43,990 nt of DNA from Bacteroidales bacterium (lineage in GTDB: Bacteria; Bacteroidota; Bacteroidia; Bacteroidales; JAOZVK01). The notes beneath the pieces were generated by a model. The model made no database searches, was not told where the DNA came from, and saw only the letters and a list, made by a program, of their open reading frames with translations. Of this stretch, positions 35,225-43,931 are shown piece by piece. The DNA lies in assembly GCA_029938185.1 (NCBI GenBank), contig JAOZVK010000001.1, positions 1 through 43,990 of the forward strand, read 5' to 3'. A program made the position numbers and the translations under genes. The stretch's first letter is position 1. Every line of letters starts with the position of its first letter.

Positions 35225-36661
35225 ATGAAAAAAGAAAATTTAAAAAATCAGGAAGAAGACAAAACTTTGCTTGAAGGAAGTGAAAATTTGACAGATAAAA
35301 ATAATAATGAAATTGTAGAGGAAGAAAAAAAAACTTTGAAAGACAAGATTATTAATCAAAAAACAGCCTTGCTTGTTGCCGGTGGCGGATTGATTGCAGG
35401 GACTGGATTTGCAGCAGGAACAAAGCAAAATGATGAAATACTTATTGATACCGACAATGACAACATTGCTGATGCTGTTTTGATAGACGAAAACGAAGAT
35501 GGTATTTATAACACTGAAACCGAAATTGAGGAGATAGAGGAAGTTGAGGAAGTTGAAACCGAACCCGAAATTGAAACAAACAGCGAAAACTCAAATAGTC
35601 ATACTTTTAATACAGATACAGCACCTCACACAAGTGAAGGAACGGTTACTGATGATATGTCGTTTTCGGAAGCATTTGGGGCGGCAAGAACTGAGCTTGG
35701 TGCCGGTGGTGTATTTGAGTGGGACGGTCAAGCTTACAGCACTTTTTATGCTGAAGAAGTTGACGAAAACATGAATCCAACAGTTGATTATACAACTACA
35801 AACGACCCTGAATATATTAATAATAACAATTCTGAAAATGATAATGAAAATACCGAAATAAATAACAATACAGATAATGACACAGATATAGATGATAACA
35901 CAGAATTAGAAGATGATACATTTGATGTTGAAAATATAGATGAAATAATTGACAACAGTGTTGTAGATACAGGAACGGTGGAATACGATGGTGAAGTGTC
36001 GAATGATATTCCTGATGATGTTTCTAATACCGAACTTGATAATCACAATAACGAATTTTCCAGTTCAAATGATAATTTTGACGATGAAGGTGGTGATGAC
36101 ATAAATCTAACATTTAACTTTACAAACAATACTGAAAATAACAATACTGAAAATAATAATATTGTAAATAACAATACTGAAAATAATAATATTGTAAATA
36201 ATAATATTGAAAATAATGATATTGAAAATAATGATGTTATAATTATTGATAATGAAAACACTGAAATAAATAATAATACTGTTGAAATTGAAAACACAGA
36301 AATAAACAACAATACTACTGAAAACTCAGATAATAATACAAGTAATGAAACAGATACAGACGATATTGTGGACTTAGATAATGATGTAGAGTTAGATGGT
36401 GATTTAGAAATAGGTGATGGTGCAGAATTAGATGATGATGTAGAGTTAGATGGTGATTTAGGATTAGATGATGATGTAGTTGAAGTTGAAGACATTGATG
36501 AAATAATCGGCAACGGTGTTGTAGATACAGGAACAGTGGAATATGACGGTGAAGTATCAAATGATGTTACTGATGATGTGCCAGATACCGAACTTGATAA
36601 TCACAACGACGACCTTGCAGCTTTAGATGATGATTTTGATGATATGAACGACTGGGCATAA
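35225..36661 (+). CDS. extremely acidic D/E/N-rich repeat protein with one predicted TM segment
   Basis: TM-like TALLVAGGGLIAGTGFAAGT. Conserved-looking block DDMSFSEAFGAARTELGAGGVFEWDGQAYSTFYAEE. A ~47-aa unit is duplicated (..IDEII.N.VVDTGTVEYDGEVSND..D.ELDNHN..) and there are N/E/I microsatellite-like tracts. Confidence 0.7.
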   Translation: MKKENLKNQEEDKTLLEGSENLTDKNNNEIVEEEKKTLKDKIINQKTALLVAGGGLIAGTGFAAGTKQNDEILIDTDNDNIADAVLIDENEDGIYNTETEIEEIEEVEEVETEPEIETNSENSNSHTFNTDTAPHTSEGTVTDDMSFSEAFGAARTELGAGGVFEWDGQAYSTFYAEEVDENMNPTVDYTTTNDPEYINNNNSENDNENTEINNNTDNDTDIDDNTELEDDTFDVENIDEIIDNSVVDTGTVEYDGEVSNDIPDDVSNTELDNHNNEFSSSNDNFDDEGGDDINLTFNFTNNTENNNTENNNIVNNNTENNNIVNNNIENNDIENNDVIIIDNENTEINNNTVEIENTEINNNTTENSDNNTSNETDTDDIVDLDNDVELDGDLEIGDGAELDDDVELDGDLGLDDDVVEVEDIDEIIGNGVVDTGTVEYDGEVSNDVTDDVPDTELDNHNDDLAALDDDFDDMNDWA

Positions 36662-36665
36662 ATTA

Positions 36666-36698
36666 AACTTTGACAAAGTTTAAAACTTTGTCAAAGTT
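36666..36698. repeat. REP-like 33-nt palindrome
   Basis: AACTTTGACAAAGTT-TAA-AACTTTGTCAAAGTT. Confidence 0.9.
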
Positions 36699-36856
36699 GG
36701 AGTTACATAGTTTAACAATGTAAATTTATAACCGTTTGCAATATAATATTACATTATAATGGTCTCATAAATTATTATAGCATTCATAAAGTCTCGGTGT
36801 AGTTAATAAAAAAACTATGCAGTTAAAAAAAGAGCCACACCAAGACATTTCTTACA

Positions 36857-36888
36857 AGTTTGACAAAGTTCAAAACTTTGTCAAACTT
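36857..36888. repeat. REP-like palindrome (slightly degenerate)
   Basis: AGTTTGACAAAGTT-CAAA-ACTTTGTCAAACT. It supplies the spurious TTG start at 36860. Confidence 0.85.
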
Positions 36889-36910
36889 AAATAAACAAAA
36901 TCAAAAAATT

Positions 36911-37414
36911 ATGAAAGTAAAATGTTCAAAATGTGGTAGTATTTTGTTAATTGCCGAAAACAAATTACCAAAAAATAAAAAAAAGGCAATGGTAAAATGT
37001 AAAAAATGTAACCATTCAATTGTATTTACAATTCCTAATGCCGGTGAGCCAGAAGGTGAAAAAACTGAAATTGGCGATGCTAATGAACTAAAAATTCAAA
37101 ATGTAAAACTTATTGAAACAAAAACCGGTAAAGAATATATCTTAAAAATTGGAAAAAATATTATTGGAAGAAAAACAGATATTTCTATTGAGGGAGATAA
37201 ATACATTAGCCGTTTACATTGCCTTGTGGAAATGAAAAAACAAACTTGGGGCATCGAACTCACAATAAGCGATGATGGAACAGAAACAGGAAAGCCGAGC
37301 ACAAATGGAACTTTTTATAAAGATGAAAAAATATCAAAATTTGATAAAATTGTGCTAAAAAATGGTGACAAAATACGTGTAGGACGCACCGATTTAACTG
37401 TAAAATTTTATTAA
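36911..37414 (+). CDS. MJ0042-type zinc-ribbon plus FHA domain protein
   Basis: MKVKCSKCGSILL..VKCKKCNHSIVF zinc ribbon. FHA signature IGRKTDISIEGDKYISRLHC...STNGTFYKDEKI...LKNGDKIRVG. Confidence 0.85.
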   Translation: MKVKCSKCGSILLIAENKLPKNKKKAMVKCKKCNHSIVFTIPNAGEPEGEKTEIGDANELKIQNVKLIETKTGKEYILKIGKNIIGRKTDISIEGDKYISRLHCLVEMKKQTWGIELTISDDGTETGKPSTNGTFYKDEKISKFDKIVLKNGDKIRVGRTDLTVKFY

Positions 37415-37522
37415 GGTCTTCTATCTATTTATAGTTGCTTACGCATTAGTACAAAGACAATTTAATCAGGAAATTATGAATAAGTAAATGTCGAAAAAAT
37501 TTTGTAACAGTACTTAATTGAA
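37415..37522 (+). repeat. GGTCTTCGACC-family element, full-length
   Basis: GGTCTTCTATCTATTTATAGTTGCTTACGCATTAGTACAAAGAC...GTCGAAAAAATTTTGTAACAGTACTTAATTG starts on the base after the TAA stop at 37412-37414. Confidence 0.8.
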
Positions 37523-37533
37523 CAATTAAAATC

Positions 37534-37683
37534 GGGGCTAACAATAGTATCATCTTTACGGATAGCCTACTGTCGGCGTGGCTCAAAGCCACACCGACAG
37601 TTTTAGGACAAGACAGTAAGAGAACAAACAGGTGAAAAACACCTGCCGAGCGCAATGAAGTATTCAACTTTATGTGGGTAGCC
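37534..37683 (-). repeat. composite GC-rich repeat with two hairpins, ending ..AACTTTATGTGGGTAGCC
   Basis: Hairpin CTGTCGGCGTGGC-TCAAA-GCCACACCGACAG (37570-37600). Hairpin CAGGTG-AAAAA-CACCTG. The tail GAGCGCAATGAAGTATTCAACTTTATGTGGGTAGCC recurs at 42148-42205 and 43875-43931. Confidence 0.75.
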
Positions 37684-37733
37684 AAACAGGCTATGCTATT
37701 ATTAACATTGTGAAAACTTTTAAATAATTTAAA

Positions 37734-38495
37734 ATGAATATGAGAAAAATCTTATTAATACTTTTTTTTACTATTTTTTTGCAACAAACTAATGCACAAA
37801 AAAAATATGTTTTAATAGCAGGAGTTGCAGATTATAAAGATGATAGGCTGGATTTGCACTATTGCGACGACGATGCATACCGTTTTTATGCATATATGAA
37901 AAGTACAAAAGGTGGAAGTGTGCAGGACAATAATATTGCTATACTGGTAGACGAGGCTGCAACACGTAAAAATATTTTAATGACTATGCATAAAATTTTT
38001 TCTAAAGCAGGAAAAAATGATATGCTTATTTTTTATTTTTCGGGACATGGCGGAAAAGGCTATTTTTGCCCATACGAAACAAGTAAAAACCCTAAAAGTT
38101 TGTTGTTACACAACGATATAAAAAAAATATTCAAAAAACATCCTGCAAAAAGCAAAATTGTATTTGGTGATGCATGCCATTCGGGTAGTATTTTTGAAGG
38201 TACAAGCCACACTGTACCAAATGGAACCGCTGTAAAAACAAATGTTGTAATATTAATGTCATCAAAATATAGCGAAACCTCACAAGAAAATAAAAAACTC
38301 AGACAAGGTACTTTTTCTTATTATCTTTTGCGTGGATTACAAGGTAAAGCAGATAGAAATAAAGATAAAAACATAACTTTACAAGAACTTTTTCCATATA
38401 TTAAAGCAAATGTTCTTAACTTTACAAAAAATAGGCAAACACCATTTATTGAAGGTAAAGCACCTGCAAATATGATAATTGGTAGATTAAAATAA
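37734..38495 (+). CDS. caspase-like (peptidase C14) protease with N-terminal signal peptide
   Basis: Signal peptide MNMRKILLILFFTIFLQQTNAQ. Catalytic His motif FYFSGHGG and Cys motif GDACHSG in the canonical order. Confidence 0.85.
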   Translation: MNMRKILLILFFTIFLQQTNAQKKYVLIAGVADYKDDRLDLHYCDDDAYRFYAYMKSTKGGSVQDNNIAILVDEAATRKNILMTMHKIFSKAGKNDMLIFYFSGHGGKGYFCPYETSKNPKSLLLHNDIKKIFKKHPAKSKIVFGDACHSGSIFEGTSHTVPNGTAVKTNVVILMSSKYSETSQENKKLRQGTFSYYLLRGLQGKADRNKDKNITLQELFPYIKANVLNFTKNRQTPFIEGKAPANMIIGRLK

Positions 38496-38526
38496 CTTTG
38501 ACAAAGTTCCAAACTTTGTCAAAGTT
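38494..38526. repeat. REP-like 33-nt palindrome overlapping the caspase stop codon
   Basis: AACTTTGACAAAGTT-CCA-AACTTTGTCAAAGTT. Its first two bases are the AA of the TAA at 38493-38495. Confidence 0.9.
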
Positions 38527-38565
38527 AAAAGTTAAAAAGTTGAAAAATCAATAAAAATAAAAATT

Positions 38566-38724
38566 ATGTTAGCACTAAAAGGAATATACGAAAATGGAAC
38601 AATAAAATTTGATAAACCAATAAATATAAAAAAAGCTGTAAAAGTTATTGTTATATTTATTGATGAAGAAATACAACTAAACTATCAAACAGTTGATACC
38701 AATAAAGAACATATTGCAAAATAA
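38566..38724 (+). CDS. small DUF104/AF2212-like antitoxin-type protein (52 aa), not in the supplied ORF track
   Basis: MLALKGIYENGTIKFDKPINIKKAVKVIVIFIDEE resembles the IYENGV.KP...L.EG..V.I pattern of small antitoxin-like proteins. No toxin partner is adjacent. Confidence 0.45.
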   Translation: MLALKGIYENGTIKFDKPINIKKAVKVIVIFIDEEIQLNYQTVDTNKEHIAK

Positions 38725-38845
38725 CCGGAAACATTTTTATACTCCGATTGAAACAAAAAAGTAACATTTAATACAATATACAATTTGTAAGTTTGTACAA
38801 GCTTTTCAGATAAAACAAAAGTCAAAAATATTTAATTTAATAATT

Positions 38846-40144
38846 ATGATTAACGATAAAGTGTTAAACTACAAAATTACTGTCTCGATAGGTAAAGGCG
38901 GTATGGCAGAGGTATTTAAAGCCGAACATCAAACTTTTGAGGATAGAAAAGTGGCAATAAAAATTCTCGACCCTGTGCTTGCTCGTAAAGAAAATATTGC
39001 GACACGATTTGTGAACGAAGCCAAAATTATGGCTAAATTGGAGCATCAGAATATTGTAAAAGTGGTTGATTTTGAGAAACGCACAGATATGCTCGCCATA
39101 ATAATGGAACTTCTCGAAGGAAAAAGCCTGACAGGATATATAAAACAAAAAGGAAAACTGCAAAAACAAGAAGCCATAGAAATTTTCAAACAAGCTTTGA
39201 GTGCTTTTGAATTTGCCCACAAACACAATGTAGTTCACCGTGATGTAAAACCCTCAAATATTTTTATAGAGACCCAAAAAGGCAATAATGTTAAAATACT
39301 TGATTTTGGTATAGCAAAACTATTAGAAAGCAATGCAAACGACACAAACACAGGTGCACAAATGGGAACACCTGTTTATATGAGTCCCGAACAAGTAAGA
39401 GACAGCAAAAATATTGACAGCCGAAGTGATATATACTCTTTGGGCGTAGTATTGTATTATATGCTTGCCGGAAAACCACCTTATGACAGTACAAGTCTCT
39501 CGAATTTTGATATTTACACAAAAATTGTAAATGAGCCGGTACCTGAACTGAGCACTCACCCCGAAATTAACAAAATAATAAAAAAAGCAACCGCCAAAAA
39601 ACCTGCTGATAGATACCAAACATGCAATGAGTTTGAAAAAGCACTCGAAGTAAACTTTGACAAAGTTCCAAACTTTGTCAAAGTTGAAACAAACAACGAA
39701 GATGAAACCCTAATAGACAACGAACAAAAAAACTTTGACAAAGTTCCAAACTTTGTCAAAGTTGAACCAAACGAAGATGTAACCCTAATAGACGACCCCG
39801 AAACTGAACTTTGGGACAAAATAAAAAACAAAACAGATATACAACTGTTTAAAAACTATTTGCAAAAATACCCAAATGGAAGATATAAAGAACAGGCAAG
39901 TAAAATAATTGATGCTAAAAACTTTGAAAAACAAAAAAACTTTGACAAAGTTCCAAACTTTGTCAAAGTTGAAACAAACAACGAAGATGAAACCTTAATT
40001 GACGACCCCGAAACCGAACTTTGGGACAAAATAAAAAACAAAACAGACATACAACTATTTAAAAACTACTTGCAAAAATACACAAATGGAAGATATAAAA
40101 AACTGGCAAGTAAAATAATTGATGCTAAAAACTTTGAAAAATAA
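38846..40144 (+). CDS. Hanks-type Ser/Thr protein kinase followed by 70-aa tandem repeats, terminated by a TAA inside a repeat
   Basis: GKGGMAEVF, VAIKIL, HRDVKPSNIF, DFGIAK and GTPVYMSPE. From 39653 the repeat units begin. The stop at 40142-40144 is CAA in the paralogous repeat copies. Confidence 0.9.
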   Translation: MINDKVLNYKITVSIGKGGMAEVFKAEHQTFEDRKVAIKILDPVLARKENIATRFVNEAKIMAKLEHQNIVKVVDFEKRTDMLAIIMELLEGKSLTGYIKQKGKLQKQEAIEIFKQALSAFEFAHKHNVVHRDVKPSNIFIETQKGNNVKILDFGIAKLLESNANDTNTGAQMGTPVYMSPEQVRDSKNIDSRSDIYSLGVVLYYMLAGKPPYDSTSLSNFDIYTKIVNEPVPELSTHPEINKIIKKATAKKPADRYQTCNEFEKALEVNFDKVPNFVKVETNNEDETLIDNEQKNFDKVPNFVKVEPNEDVTLIDDPETELWDKIKNKTDIQLFKNYLQKYPNGRYKEQASKIIDAKNFEKQKNFDKVPNFVKVETNNEDETLIDDPETELWDKIKNKTDIQLFKNYLQKYTNGRYKKLASKIIDAKNFEK

Positions 40145-40526
40145 AAAAACTTTGACAAAGTTCCAAACTTTGTCAAAGTTGAGACAAGCAACAATGATGA
40201 AACCTTAATTGATGACCCCGAAACCGAACTTTGGGAACAAATTAAAAATAAAAACGATATACAACTATTTAAAAACTATTTACAAAAATACCCAAATGGA
40301 AGATATAAAGAACAGGCAAGTAAAATAATTGATGCTAAAAACTTTGAAAAACAAAAAAACTTTGACAAAGTTCCAAACTTTGTCAAAGTTGAGACAAGCA
40401 ACAATGATGAAACCTTAATTGATGACCCCGAAACCGAACTTTGGGAACAAATTAAAAATAAAAACGATATACAACTATTTAAAAACTACTTGCAAAAATA
40501 CCCAAATGGTAGATATAAAAAACTGG
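39653..40526 (+). repeat. coding tandem repeat, 210-bp unit (one partial, three full, one partial), each unit starting with the REP-like palindrome
   Basis: Palindromes at 39653, 39731, 39938, 40148 and 40358. Spacing is exactly 210 bp for the last three. The unit encodes NFDKVPNFVKVE..ETLIDDPETELW..IKNK.DIQLFKNYLQKYPNGRYK..A.KIIDAKNFEKQK. Confidence 0.9.
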
Positions 40527-41308
40527 CAATAATTGAACAACCATCTGAGAATATAAAAAACTATACAGAAACTGTAAAAAGTGTAAGTTTTGATATGAAA
40601 GCTGTAGAAGGCGGAACATTCCAAATGGGAAGTAACGAAAACAGTGATGAAAAACCAATACACAGCGTAACAGTCCACAGTTATAATATGGGTAAATACG
40701 AAGTAACACAAAAACTATGGAAAGCAGTAATGGACAACAACCCAAGCCATTTTAAAGGAGACAATAGACCTGTTGAACAAGTTAGCTGGGATGATATACA
40801 AAAGTTTCTTAAAAAGCTAAACAAAATGACTAGTAAAAACTATCGCTTGCCCACAGAAACAGAATGGGAATATGCAGCCAGTGGAGGTAGCAAAATCCAA
40901 TCAACAATAGGTCGCATTTTGGAATGGAGGGAACATGTAGCTAGGGGTAGCACACACCAACAAAAATGGGCAGGTACAAATAGAAAAAGCTTGCTTGGCT
41001 CGTATGCTTGGTATAGCGACAACAGTGGCAGTAAAACACACAATGTAGGAACAAAACGTCCAAATAAACTTGGAATATACGATATGAGCGGAAACGTATG
41101 GGAATGGTGTCAAGACCATTGGCACAGTAATTACAACGGTGCACCAACAAATGGAAGAGCATGGACAAGTGGTAGTAGTTCGCGCCGTGTTATTCGTGGC
41201 GGCAGTTGGTATTACAACGCCAGTGGTTGTCGTGTGGCTTATCGGTACAGCTACAGTCAGGGCGAGCGTGCCTACAACTTGGGCTTTCGCCTTGTGTTTG
41301 TCCCGTAG
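40490..41308 (+). CDS. FGE-sulfatase (SUMF1/formylglycine-generating-enzyme-like) domain; same frame as the kinase ORF and open back to 40145
   Basis: GGTFQMGS..., YNMGKYEVTQKLW, RLPTETEWEYAASGG, GIYDMSGNVWEWCQD, RVIRGGSW and NLGFRLV. Confidence 0.85.
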   Translation: MQKYPNGRYKKLAIIEQPSENIKNYTETVKSVSFDMKAVEGGTFQMGSNENSDEKPIHSVTVHSYNMGKYEVTQKLWKAVMDNNPSHFKGDNRPVEQVSWDDIQKFLKKLNKMTSKNYRLPTETEWEYAASGGSKIQSTIGRILEWREHVARGSTHQQKWAGTNRKSLLGSYAWYSDNSGSKTHNVGTKRPNKLGIYDMSGNVWEWCQDHWHSNYNGAPTNGRAWTSGSSSRRVIRGGSWYYNASGCRVAYRYSYSQGERAYNLGFRLVFVP

Positions 41309-41334
41309 TTTAATGAATGCTTTTCTGGAAGCTC

Positions 41335-41352
41335 AACTTTGACAAAGTTCAA
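41335..41352. repeat. half REP-like palindrome (left arm only) just upstream of the RAYT-like gene
   Basis: AACTTTGACAAAGTTCAA with no matching right arm. Confidence 0.7.
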
Positions 41353-41386
41353 ACCTAAAATTTAAACCAACAAACTAAATTATAAG

Positions 41387-42004
41387 ATGAAATATTATAC
41401 AGAACAATTAGAACCCGATAAATATTATCACATTTATAATCATGCAGTAGGAAAACTGAATTTATTTATAAACAATGATAATTATGATTTTTTTCTTAAA
41501 AAATATTCACAACATATTTCACCTGTTGCCGATACTTTTGCTTATTGTTTAATGCCAAATCATTTTCATTTTGCTGTGCGTATAAAATCTGGTTCGAGTA
41601 TTTCAAGTTTGACAAAGTTTCAAAACTTTGTCAAAGTTCGCCATCGCAGTATAGAATTTTTTGTCAGTAAACAATTTTCTAATTTATTCAGCTCATATTC
41701 TCAGTCGTTCAACAAACAACAAAACCGAAGGGGTAGCCTGTTTGAGCGTCCTTTTAAAAGATTACATATAATTGACGATAAATATTTTCGTTCAATAATA
41801 CATTATATTCATTATAACCCTGTTCATCACGGTTTTGTTGATGATTTACGCAATTGGAAATATTCATCTTTCGAGAGTTTTTTTTCAGATAAAGCAACTC
41901 AACTAAAACGTGAAGAAGTAATAAATTGGTTCGATAATAAAGAAAATTTTTATGAATTTCATAAAAAAGAAATAGATGAAAAATTGATATTAGAGCTTGA
42001 ATAA
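41387..42004 (+). CDS. Y1 HUH transposase, IS200-like / REP-associated tyrosine transposase (RAYT) type, carrying an in-frame palindrome insertion
   Basis: YHIYNHAVGKLNLF, HUH motif MPNHFHFAV, GSLFERPFKR and catalytic-Tyr region HYIHYNPVHHGFV. Confidence 0.75.
   Translation: MKYYTEQLEPDKYYHIYNHAVGKLNLFINNDNYDFFLKKYSQHISPVADTFAYCLMPNHFHFAVRIKSGSSISSLTKFQNFVKVRHRSIEFFVSKQFSNLFSSYSQSFNKQQNRRGSLFERPFKRLHIIDDKYFRSIIHYIHYNPVHHGFVDDLRNWKYSSFESFFSDKATQLKREEVINWFDNKENFYEFHKKEIDEKLILELE
41606..41638. repeat. REP-like palindrome inside the RAYT-like coding sequence
   Basis: AGTTTGACAAAGTT-TCAAA-ACTTTGTCAAAGTT, translated as SLTKFQNFVKV between the HUH motif and the Tyr motif. Confidence 0.9.
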
Positions 42005-42038
42005 ATTTTTATTTAACTTAATAATCAACCTAATAATC

Positions 42039-42071
42039 AACTTTGACAAAGTTTAAAACTTTGTCAAAGTT
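42039..42071. repeat. REP-like 33-nt palindrome downstream of the RAYT-like gene
   Basis: AACTTTGACAAAGTT-TAA-AACTTTGTCAAAGTT. Confidence 0.9.
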
Positions 42072-42147
42072 TAAACAGACAAACTAAATATTAACTGTAT
42101 TTTGCTAAATCTAAATCAAATATTGGCTCAGAGAATAAGCAGTCAGA

Positions 42148-42205
42148 GGCAGGTGAAAAAATACCTACAGAGCGCAGTGATGTATTCAACTTTATGTGGA
42201 TAGCC
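42148..42205 (+). repeat. GC-rich repeat tail module (CAGGTG hairpin plus ..AACTTTATGTGGATAGCC)
   Basis: GGCAGGTGAAAAAATACCTACAGAGCGCAGTGATGTATTCAACTTTATGTGGATAGCC matches 37628-37683 and 43875-43931. Confidence 0.7.
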
Positions 42206-42348: not shown

Positions 42349-43320
42349 ATGAATAACGAAATACTAATATACAAAACCGAAGACGGTAAAATAAAAATAG
42401 AAACTCATTTTGAAAATGAAACTGTTTGGCTAAATATAGAGCAAATAGCAGAGTTATTTCAAAAATCACGCTCTACTATAAATGAGCATATTCTTAATAT
42501 TTATAAAGAAGGTGAGCTTGAACAAGAAGAAACAAAGAGAAAAATCGGAATTTCCGATTTTTCTACTAAACCCACAAATTTCTATAATCTTGATGTTGTA
42601 ATTTCTGTAGGTTACCGAGTTAAATCGCAAATAGGTGTTCATTTTAGAAAATGGGCTACTAGCATAATCAAAGAATACATGATAAAAGGCTTTGCCATGA
42701 ATGACGAATTATTAAAACAAGCTGGCGGAGGCAATTATTTTGATGAACTATTGGCTCGTATTAGAGATATTCGTTCTTCTGAAAAAGTTTTTTGGCGTAA
42801 AGTCTTGGATATATATGCTACAAGCATAGATTATGACCCCAAATCAGAACATTCGATATTGTTCTTTAAAACAGTTCAAAACAAAATGCACTGGGCATCG
42901 CATGGCGAAACTGCTGCCGAAACCATATATCGTCGTGTTAATTCAGAAGAAAAAAATTTAGGATTGACAAATTTTAAAAAAGAAATTCCAACACAAAAAG
43001 AAACTGAAATAGCTAAGAATTACTTAGTAGAAAATGAATTGAATATGCTTAACCGAATGGTAACGGCCTATCTTGAAGTTGCAGAAATTCAAGCACTAAA
43101 TCAAATACCAATGTACATGGGTGATTGGATTAAACAATTGGACTCTTTTCTAACAATGACAGGAAAAGAGGTACTGCAACATTCCGGTACAGTAAGTCAT
43201 AAACAAGCAATTGAAAAAGCTCATACAGAATATAATAGGTACAAGGAGAAGGTAAAAAACAGAATATCTCAAGTTGAAAAGGATTTTATGAAACAAATTG
43301 AAAACAAAACGAAAAGATAA
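42349..43320 (+). CDS. RhuM-family (virulence protein RhuM-like) protein
   Basis: ETVWLNIEQIAELFQKSRSTINEHILNIY, YNLDVVISVGYRVKS and FRKWATSIIKEYMIKGF, typical of the RhuM family. Confidence 0.75.
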   Translation: MNNEILIYKTEDGKIKIETHFENETVWLNIEQIAELFQKSRSTINEHILNIYKEGELEQEETKRKIGISDFSTKPTNFYNLDVVISVGYRVKSQIGVHFRKWATSIIKEYMIKGFAMNDELLKQAGGGNYFDELLARIRDIRSSEKVFWRKVLDIYATSIDYDPKSEHSILFFKTVQNKMHWASHGETAAETIYRRVNSEEKNLGLTNFKKEIPTQKETEIAKNYLVENELNMLNRMVTAYLEVAEIQALNQIPMYMGDWIKQLDSFLTMTGKEVLQHSGTVSHKQAIEKAHTEYNRYKEKVKNRISQVEKDFMKQIENKTKR

Positions 43321-43587
43321 AAAAAATAAACGAATTGACTGCTTGTTCTCTTGCACAGAGCAACGCCTTAAACAAGTAATGTTGTTGCATATTGATAAAG
43401 ATAATTTTTTCAATAAAATGATAGATTATCAAATAAGCGAATTAAAACTTGGCTTATACAATATTGAAACAATTTGAGGAAAATCAAAAAAAATGTTGTG
43501 GTTTGAAACATGTCACATATTCTTACTTATATTCGTTGCATGTTGTTATATTTTAAAAATTGTAATGAAAATCAATAACATAACTGC

Positions 43588-43631
43588 CTACTGTCGGCGT
43601 GGCTTCAATGCCACACCGACAGTTTTAAACA
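43588..43631 (+). repeat. GC-rich hairpin module (second copy)
   Basis: CTGTCGGCGTGGC-TTCAAT-GCCACACCGACAG, with the same stem (including one C/A mismatch) as 37570-37600. Confidence 0.75.
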
Positions 43632-43701
43632 GGCAAAATGTAACAAACCAGTACAACTTTTTGAAATTTCCGAAATACTAAAAAAATGAAGCTACAAATA
43701 A

Positions 43702-43869
43702 AACAACCTTCAAATATCAGCTCTTTTTGAACGAGATAAGTCTGTTATTTCAAGGCATATAAATAATGTTTTTAAAGAACAGGAATTAGAAGGAAATTCA
43801 ACTGTTGCAAAATATGCAACAGTTCAAAAAGAGGGCGAAAAAAAAATTATCAGAAATATTGATTTTTGG
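43702..43869 (+). pseudogene. N-terminal fragment of a second RhuM-like gene, with no start codon, truncated by a repeat
   Basis: The open frame NNLQISALFERDKSVISRHINNVFKEQELEGNSTVAKYATVQKEGEKKIIRNIDFW parallels residues ~28-85 of the gene at 42349. Homology stops where the repeat at 43875 begins. Confidence 0.45.
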
Positions 43870-43874
43870 TCAGC

Positions 43875-43931
43875 GGCAGGTGAATACACCTGCCGAGCGC
43901 AGTAAACTATCCAACTTTACGTGGGTAGCCC
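43875..43931 (+). repeat. GC-rich repeat tail module (third copy)
   Basis: GGCAGGTGAATACACCTGCCGAGCGCAGTAAACTATCCAACTTTACGTGGGTAGCCC. Confidence 0.7.

Follow-up and report, generated by a model that had tools for sequence, protein, structure and literature searches.

How does a mobile palindrome come to be translated, in frame, inside protein-coding genes that include the gene of its own presumed transposase? This question is raised by a 43,990-nt stretch of DNA from a Bacteroidales bacterium (assembly GCA_029938185.1, contig JAOZVK010000001.1; here referred to as the window), in which a 33-nt palindrome lies between genes as well as within two open reading frames (ORFs), namely, a Ser/Thr kinase frame that is continued by an FGE-sulfatase domain, and a gene for a small HUH nuclease. 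Taken together, the evidence makes it highly probable that the palindrome is the repetitive extragenic palindrome (REP) of a REP/RAYT system (RAYT = REP-associated tyrosine transposase), or REPtron, of uncultured low-GC Bacteroidota; that the copies found in frame are survivors at tolerant sites; that the copy in the kinase gene was amplified in tandem; and that the copy inside the RAYT gene is a clade-wide feature whose peptide is a passenger.

The consensus of the element is AACTTTGACAAAGTT-NNN-AACTTTGTCAAAGTT, i.e., 33 nt that form a perfect 15-bp stem around a 3-nt loop. It is AT-rich, contains no bulge, and is not paired in the manner of REPINs (REP doublets forming hairpins) or BIMEs (bacterial interspersed mosaic elements). 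Each arm is itself a palindrome (7+1+7), and the REP can also be read as two tandem 15-mers at 18-nt spacing; both strands are identical apart from the loop, which is unconstrained. When folded as single-stranded DNA, the hairpin has an energy of -13.7 kcal/mol (z = -7.3 against shuffles). The window holds ten full palindromes and one decayed, single-arm copy, all within positions 36666-42071, and their settings are varied: intergenic, at a stop codon, 5' of a gene, and within the two ORFs. When both strands were searched for the 15-nt arm AACTTTGACAAAGTT with at most two mismatches, 42 matches were obtained, against 0.62 expected from shuffles (maximum 3), and the core CTTTGWCAAAG was matched 18 times against 0.03 expected; no arms were found in the other 38 kb of the window.

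Outside the window, the exact 33-mer with any loop was found on 69 metagenome contigs from many samples, mostly with unique flanks; about 60 unrelated sequence contexts hold the identical element. At least six of these metagenome copies are in frame and well inside Pfam-supported genes, e.g., between the domains of an Eco57I/MmeI-type restriction-modification enzyme and of a GH106 rhamnosidase, and further in two Type ISP enzymes, a Type III restriction subunit, and a class-III aminotransferase. The REP measures 11 codons, and on either strand a TGA interrupts one of its three frames and leaves the other two open. Both stop-free frames are in use among the genes that contain a REP, giving NFDKVxNFVKV and TLTKFxTLSK, respectively. 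These observations support the reading of the palindrome as a dispersed REP-type element that was inserted, rather than as ancestral coding DNA.

Several other identities were considered for the element. No conserved GT[AG]G foot was present in the flanks of the ten window copies and 70 metagenome copies, and no duplicated flanks indicative of a target-site duplication were seen among the 80 copies. A miniature inverted-repeat transposable element was rejected, the unit being a bare 33-nt hairpin with no duplicated flanks in 80 copies. A role as transcriptional terminator was likewise rejected: the REPs are terminator-like on the minus strand only, where the score arises because of the A-runs of lysine codons, and none scores on the coding strand. 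The whole window gave no Rfam match at gathering thresholds. It holds no tRNA or tmRNA that could be found, and therefore offers no explanation in terms of an integration site. These REP sequences were also not found in the published REP lists in the supplement of PMC6006769.

The gene that links the palindrome to a REPtron is the ORF at 41387-42004 (+), whose 205-aa product is, by profile and predicted structure, a RAYT, i.e., an HUH/Tyr single-strand-DNA nuclease that shares its fold with E. coli TnpAREP. The NCBIfam model REP_Tyr_transpos (NF047646) matches it end to end (profile positions 6-146, E 2.5e-17) with a score of 63 bits, which rises to 69.5 bits when the 11 REP-encoded residues are deleted. 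An AlphaFold2 model built with 30 homologues has a mean pLDDT (predicted local distance difference test) of 93.3, and its top PDB match is 4ER8_A, E. coli TnpAREP with a REP hairpin (E 5.8e-8, template-modelling score 0.73), followed by the IS200, IS608, and ISDra2 transposases. The HUH residues H59-F-H61 and the tyrosine Y140 of the motif YIHYNP are invariant in the homologue alignment; the C-terminal motif is W-K-Y-S-S-F. The gene is bracketed by REPs. Directly 5' of its start, a decayed REP with an intact first and a degenerate second arm is followed by a 29-nt tail (41335-41385, +), and 35 nt past its stop, a perfect REP with loop TAA (42039-42071) is followed by a conserved tail that ends at 42094 (+). 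The two tails (41357-41385 and 42066-42094) are 83% identical over 29 nt, so that direct repeats of about 55 nt, each a REP with its tail, stand on both sides of the RAYT gene.

A third REP lies in frame inside the RAYT gene, at 41605-41638 (+). As had been claimed in the first-pass annotation of this DNA, it is situated between the HUH and Tyr motifs and is read as SLTKFQNFVKV (residues 74-84). The 5-nt loop assigned to it there has to be corrected: with 15-nt arms the spacer is 4 nt (TCAA, 41620-23), making this element 34 nt long, and the spacer elsewhere is 3 nt. In the structural model, residues 74-84 fall in a short peripheral helix (76-85) between the HUH strand (59-66) and a long helix (89-112), within the least confident internal block of the model (pLDDT 86).

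To what extent this arrangement is shared was assessed in the RAYT homologues, of which the search returned 3125; the closest are 52-79% identical and mostly from Bacteroidota. Thirty were aligned, 80 genomic loci were fetched, and 65 of these were parsed for the internal segment; the loci are not phylogenetically independent. The sole hypervariable stretch in the 30 aligned homologues is the segment that holds the palindrome in the window RAYT, and its peptides resemble translations of palindromes, which are not the same from genome to genome. In 28 of 65 loci this segment, which follows the HUH strand and precedes the helix after it, holds a hairpin whose stem is at least 13 bp (exactly 33 nt long in 17 of the 28), while only 2.9% of control windows of equal size elsewhere in the same stop-to-stop ORFs reach the hairpin score. 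The sequences vary by locus, e.g., AACCTTCAAGGTT, CCCTGACAGGG, CTTTCGGAAAG, and AACTTTTCCAAAGTT. In 20 of the 28 cases the internal arm is found again in its own locus, in most cases no more than 150 nt from an end of the ORF, compared with 12% in a cross-locus control; at locus L156, for instance, a GCC/GGC centre is common to the internal and downstream REPs, where the window has GAC/GTC. Palindromes of 33 nt flank the RAYT gene in 51 of 64 loci, 22 with both flanking and internal copies and 29 with flanking copies only. Homologues thus carry at this position a different palindrome that usually matches their own flanking REPs, or none, as in those with a minimal linker, e.g., at locus L076, in which the REP peptide is absent. 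This agrees with the earlier proposal that the segment is an insertion. Two further arrangements were observed at these loci. At L048, the RAYT coding sequence contains a 69-nt nested hairpin with a 33-bp stem, which is composed of two REPs and reads IPDRVPLPDRVPNPVGEQDPVRD; several REP units can therefore stack in frame in the RAYT loop. At L155, positions 400-500, 5' of the RAYT gene, two arms of another REP type (AGACCTGTCAGGTTT ... AAACCTGACAGGTCT) are inverted and about 50 nt apart, in a REPIN-like arrangement.

These distributions bear on two explanations in which the palindrome is not mobile. The first holds that the segments are ancestral coding sequence selected as protein, an NF-x-K-V repeat, with palindromy incidental. 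The helix modelled for the RAYT peptide (pLDDT 86-92) and the phase bias among homologues could be cited for it, but it is barely credible, as the same DNA stands in non-coding sites and in two reading frames (NFDKV.. and TLTKF..), orthologues exist without the segment, and selection on a peptide is not expected to give perfect 15-bp stems. The second takes the motif for a transcription-factor operator of two dyad-symmetric 15-mers 18 bp apart. Each arm does have dyad symmetry, and copies do occur 5' of the RAYT gene and of an FHA gene in the window; most copies, however, are within ORFs or just past stop codons, the loops are unconstrained, and the motif is systematically associated with RAYT while its sequence changes with the genome, which leaves an operator very improbable.

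A third explanation concerns only the RAYT-internal REP, which may be a maintained functional cis-element: either an autoregulatory hairpin, in mRNA or single-stranded DNA and bound by RAYT, or a protected 'master copy' through which REP and RAYT are inherited together. Across genera, near-perfect stems of 13-18 bp occupy the same loop in a dominant codon phase (20/28) and co-vary in sequence with the flanking REPs. A compensatory pair of changes distinguishes L038 (CCTGACAGG/CCTGTCAGG) from L039 (CCAGACAGG/CCTGTCTGG), and in the tandem units of the kinase gene described below the REP columns are invariant as opposed to 25 of 177 other columns (p = 0.010). Nevertheless, such a function is considered unlikely, though a serious possibility. 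Of 65 homologues, 37 have no internal hairpin, although REPs flank the gene in 29 of these; at L155, the nearest homologue (79% identity), the second arm of the internal copy shows decay; and concerted evolution within a repeat family yields the same co-variation without function, among loci that, as stated above, are not independent. That the REP-encoded peptide of the RAYT is a tolerated passenger of a mobile element is most likely.

The second gene with REPs in frame is that of the kinase. Five copies had been described at first pass as lying within one kinase/FGE frame and being read as NFDKVPNFVKV. The five copies are indeed identical, including the loop CCA, and have that reading, but the frame is not continuous: a TAA at 40142-40144 ends the kinase ORF (38846-40144, +; Pkinase at residues 9-259) at 432 aa. 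The remainder of the frame, which carries the FGE-sulfatase domain (40145-41308, +), has no start codon until a TTG at 40490. Copies 1 (39653-39685, +) and 2 (39731-39763, +) lie in the kinase linker, and copy 3 (39938-39970, +) begins a 210-nt unit; copies 4 (40148-40180, +) and 5 (40358-40390, +) are in the same frame but 3' of the TAA, and their translation is doubtful. Sister units have CAA in place of this TAA, which is shared with an independent assembly (L002); contig L001 begins within the repeat with a CAA, in a unit that is not assignable, and is hence uninformative on the TAA. The kinase-FGE gene may be decaying or split. It was also observed that a transmembrane segment, which in the orthologue P0121 separates the repeat module from the FGE domain, is absent from the window protein.

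The proposed amplification of the inserted peptide as part of a 70-aa repeat was confirmed, with a tandem array of period 210 nt extending from 39723 to 40529 (+; 3.9 copies, 93% matches). The 210-nt unit consists of the REP and a helical module (W-x-x-I...YL-x-x-YP-x-G) that is single-copy in orthologues; a 78-nt tandem unit is also present in the kinase gene. Because homologous flanks are shared within the tandem units, the five kinase copies are read from the sequence as a single insertion multiplied by 78- and 210-nt duplications, and not as five events. Among the four 210-nt units, none of the 33 REP columns is variable, against 25 of 177 columns elsewhere (one-sided Fisher p = 0.010), a mild hint of homogenisation or constraint. 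In the intact ORF the REP peptides correspond to residues 270-280, 296-306, and 365-375, and a model of the 432-aa protein has pLDDT below 50 at 273-316 and 368-390, which covers most of the three peptides, with the first residues of the REP 1 and REP 3 peptides falling just outside. The peptides are thus modelled in disordered linkers (pLDDT 26-40), and the kinase domain and helical modules are confidently folded. The inserts occupy sites at which insertions are tolerated, namely, these linkers and, in the RAYT, the short peripheral helix that follows the HUH strand.

Kinase orthologues give a picture similar to that of the RAYT homologues, in that the same linker contains either one arm or a different palindrome, again in line with an insertion that is not ancestral. 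In the closest, P0121 (L084, 77% identity), the helical module is single-copy, and the site of kinase REP 2 holds one arm only (AAGTTTGTCAAAG, read KFVKE), exactly 18 nt (arm plus loop) shorter than the window. In P0134 (L085, 70% identity), the corresponding linker contains AAACCGTCAAGGTTT-TAAC-AACCTTGACGGTTT, read NRQGFNNLDGL; the linkers of remoter homologues are unalignable. The gene of P0134 also contains, at L085 positions 1110-1135, a GC-rich in-frame hairpin (GAGACGCAC-GGTC-GTGCGTCTC, read ETHGRASQ), i.e., a second REP type translated in the same kinase gene.

The single arm of P0121 raises the possibility that the full palindrome is formed on the spot from a pre-existing 15-nt self-palindromic half-site, which would be duplicated in tandem by slippage with an 18-nt period, rather than being inserted as a unit of 33 nt. 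The arms, being self-palindromic, are near-identical direct repeats 18 nt apart, and runs of arm-like units occur at L053. In the window, a degenerate third arm (AAACTTTGAAAAAC, 39919-39937) was seen 18 nt 5' of the REP, with an equivalent before every later kinase copy, giving an arm triplet of 18-nt period that reads NFEKQK/NFDKVP/NFVKVE. This suggests, as far as sequence comparison goes, that arms can be gained or lost by slippage in the kinase linker, and slippage in situ stays in contention there because of the 18-nt difference in L084 and this third arm. As an origin of the palindrome itself it is distinctly improbable, given that the identical 33-mer in about 60 unrelated contexts, and palindromes flanking RAYT in 51 of 64 loci, need a process of dispersal, and that loss of one arm between direct repeats explains L084 equally well.

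If the palindrome is a RAYT-mobilised REP, the following course of events can be proposed. By analogy with TnpAREP and the IS200/IS605 enzymes, the RAYT would recognise the 33-nt hairpin on single-stranded DNA and copy the REP to new sites, most of which would be intergenic and near gene ends. Insertion into a structurally tolerant stretch would leave an ORF working and would escape purifying selection; the length of 11 codons, together with two open frames per strand, would let some intragenic insertions survive. In the kinase gene, one REP would have inserted in the disordered linker past the kinase domain and would later have been multiplied by the 78-nt and 210-nt duplications. For the RAYT-internal copy, the match with the flanking REPs may be kept up by recurrent insertion or by gene conversion with REPs of the local pool.

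A number of observations weigh against this account. The RAYT scores 63 bits in REP_Tyr_transpos, below the curated cut-off of 80 bits, and the Pfam Y1_Tnp match is weak (E 0.007). The protein has no equivalents of W94/Q95 but LFERPF instead, a GT[AG]G foot is missing from the REPs, and mobility mediated by the RAYT is attributed to it from its family. The window holds 11 REP copies and one RAYT in 44 kb, with the copies confined to 5.4 kb. Only three of the five kinase-frame REPs lie in an intact ORF, because the TAA at 40142-40144 interrupts the frame and leaves copies 4 and 5 behind a stop codon, and the 18-nt difference in L084 would fit duplication or deletion of a 15-nt palindrome in situ as well as insertion of a whole element. 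Lastly, one codon phase is shared by 20 of the 28 internal hairpins, which agrees better with one ancient acquisition than with repeated independent insertion and suggests, on sequence grounds, that concerted evolution followed.

With regard to known systems, the REPtron of E. coli TnpAREP (RayT/YafM, 4ER8) resembles the present one in the HUH/Tyr fold, in a gene bracketed by dispersed short palindromes, and in the co-variation of REP and RAYT between genomes. In contrast to a classical REPtron, the window REP has a perfect AT-rich 15-bp stem, self-palindromic arms, and no GT[AG]G foot, and in contrast to TnpAREP, the window RAYT has LFERPF in place of WQ, residues linked to GTAG recognition (PMC6006769), and scores below the NCBIfam equivalog cut-off. 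The IS200/IS605 TnpA proteins have the same Y1 HUH fold and recognise hairpins on single-stranded DNA, as the window RAYT would by analogy; unlike in those elements, no IS-like ends with cleavage-site guide sequences were identified in the window, the gene occurs there once, and the hairpins are dispersed without it.

The closest precedent is that of Quentin et al. 2018 (PMC6006769), who described REPs within tnpAREP genes that leave the frame undisrupted, in the HuH-Y interval, in the β3-αC loop, and peripheral in a homology model. Such in-gene insertion was called unique to TnpAREP subclass 2.4 (RAYT group 4), whose signature is NH[IFV]H, WQ, YIxNNP, no C-terminal Ser-motif extension, and GTAG or 'double foot' REPs (Table 1 therein). 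The window RAYT is like subclass 2.4 in the in-frame REP between HuH and Y in the β3-αC loop, where both length and sequence are hypervariable and the position in the model is peripheral, and its NHFH fits; as judged by motifs, it differs in its L-F-E, YIH[YF]NP, W-x-[YH]-S-S-[FY] extension, and GTAG-less REPs. Subclass 2.6 (RAYT group 5) is mostly from Bacteroidetes and has atypical REPs, NH[LIV]H, YIH[QN]NP, and a Ser motif (PMC6006769). With this subclass the window RAYT shares a Bacteroidota host, REPs without GT[AG]G, a Ser motif after the core, an HuH-Y distance of about 80 aa, and a W/Q region that is not conserved. The motifs are NHFH (NHIH in some homologues) and YIH[YF]NP in the window clade; moreover, the hairpins listed as REPs of 2.6 are short, GC-rich, and provided with a GCTRG-type foot, and REPs inside the gene are not reported for it (PMC6006769).

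In-frame intragenic REPs of the GTAG/CGTC type are known from many species, in which REP ends may also supply stop codons (Di Nocera et al. 2013, PMC3733652); the same paper recalls the Rickettsia palindromic elements (RPEs; Ogata et al. 2000). Both resemble the present case as short palindromes in frame in functional-looking genes, often in linkers. The parallel with RPEs that was drawn in the first-pass annotation is therefore fair as a description of behaviour, but RPEs are not the closest precedent, since the in-frame REPs within tnpAREP (PMC6006769) are nearer. The window element differs from RPEs in being 33 nt long, RAYT-associated, and amplified within a 70-aa tandem repeat. RPE-1 elements are longer, about 100-150 bp, and RPEs are not known to have a dedicated transposase. 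RPEs are an analogue and not kin, there being no relationship in sequence or size and the host phylum being different.

The remaining REP copies lie upstream of the kinase gene. A perfect copy with loop TAA (36666-36698) is intergenic, 5 nt past the stop of an ORF (35225-36661) for a 478-aa, highly acidic, low-complexity, N/E/D/T-rich protein with 15-nt and 18-nt tandem repeats and no Pfam match. A copy with one mismatch per arm and loop CAA (36856-36888) precedes an FHA/zinc-ribbon gene. As had been suspected, it contains the TTG at 36860 that opens the ORF 36860-37414; the Pfam zinc-ribbon and FHA matches begin at an ATG at 36911, which is likely the real start, the TTG being spurious. A copy with loop CCA (38494-38526) was correctly placed over a stop codon, namely, the TAA at 38493-38495 that ends a caspase-domain gene (37734-38495). 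Other repeats were seen in the same region. At 37565-37605 and 43586-43627 there is a second hairpin repeat, GCCTACTGTCGGCGTGGCT-loop-GCCACACCGACAGTTTTA, which is GC-rich, has no relation to the AT-rich REP, and recalls the GC-rich REPs that are listed for RAYT subclass 2.6 of Bacteroidetes. A 49-nt repeat (..CACCTGCCGAGCGCAATGAAGTATTCAACTTTATGTGGGTAGCC) occurs at 37635-37683, 42157-42205, and 43882-43930, in copies 86-88% identical, each preceded by a small CAGGTG/CACCTG hairpin; it has no Rfam match, and a scan of 37400-37760 at E up to 1 gave nothing. Two of its copies bracket a RhuM gene (42349-43320) and a RhuM-like fragment near 43700-43870. With a zinc-ribbon/FHA protein and a secreted caspase-domain protein (36911-38495), the Ser/Thr kinase-FGE frame (38846-41308), and RhuM, the RAYT neighbourhood looks like a signalling or conflict-system island.

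The phenomenon as such is already published, in-frame REPs in tnpAREP and other genes being known, and no new kind of system is described here. What is new is the addition of a RAYT without WQ, and of REPs without a GTAG foot, to the cases of in-frame REPs. A more far-reaching interpretation would be that of a large Bacteroidota RAYT clade, not recognisably within the published subclasses, with a GTAG-less 33-nt REP of two self-palindromic 15-mers, in which the cognate in-gene copy would be retained for a function, either in autoregulation or as a heritable template, and would co-evolve with the REP pool; this is regarded as quite unlikely.

For those working with related genomes, palindromes of this type lead to annotations with false start codons, extended N-termini, and 'insertion domains' that are hypervariable, and assemblies break at REP tandem repeats, e.g., L001-L003. 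For the RAYT family, the in-frame REP within its own RAYT gene is extended to a second, motif-distinct clade that is widespread in Bacteroidota, with the internal copy tracking the flanking REPs in a survey of 65 loci. The system could be used to address how the specificities of REP and RAYT co-evolve without a GTAG guide, and whether intragenic REPs are neutral.

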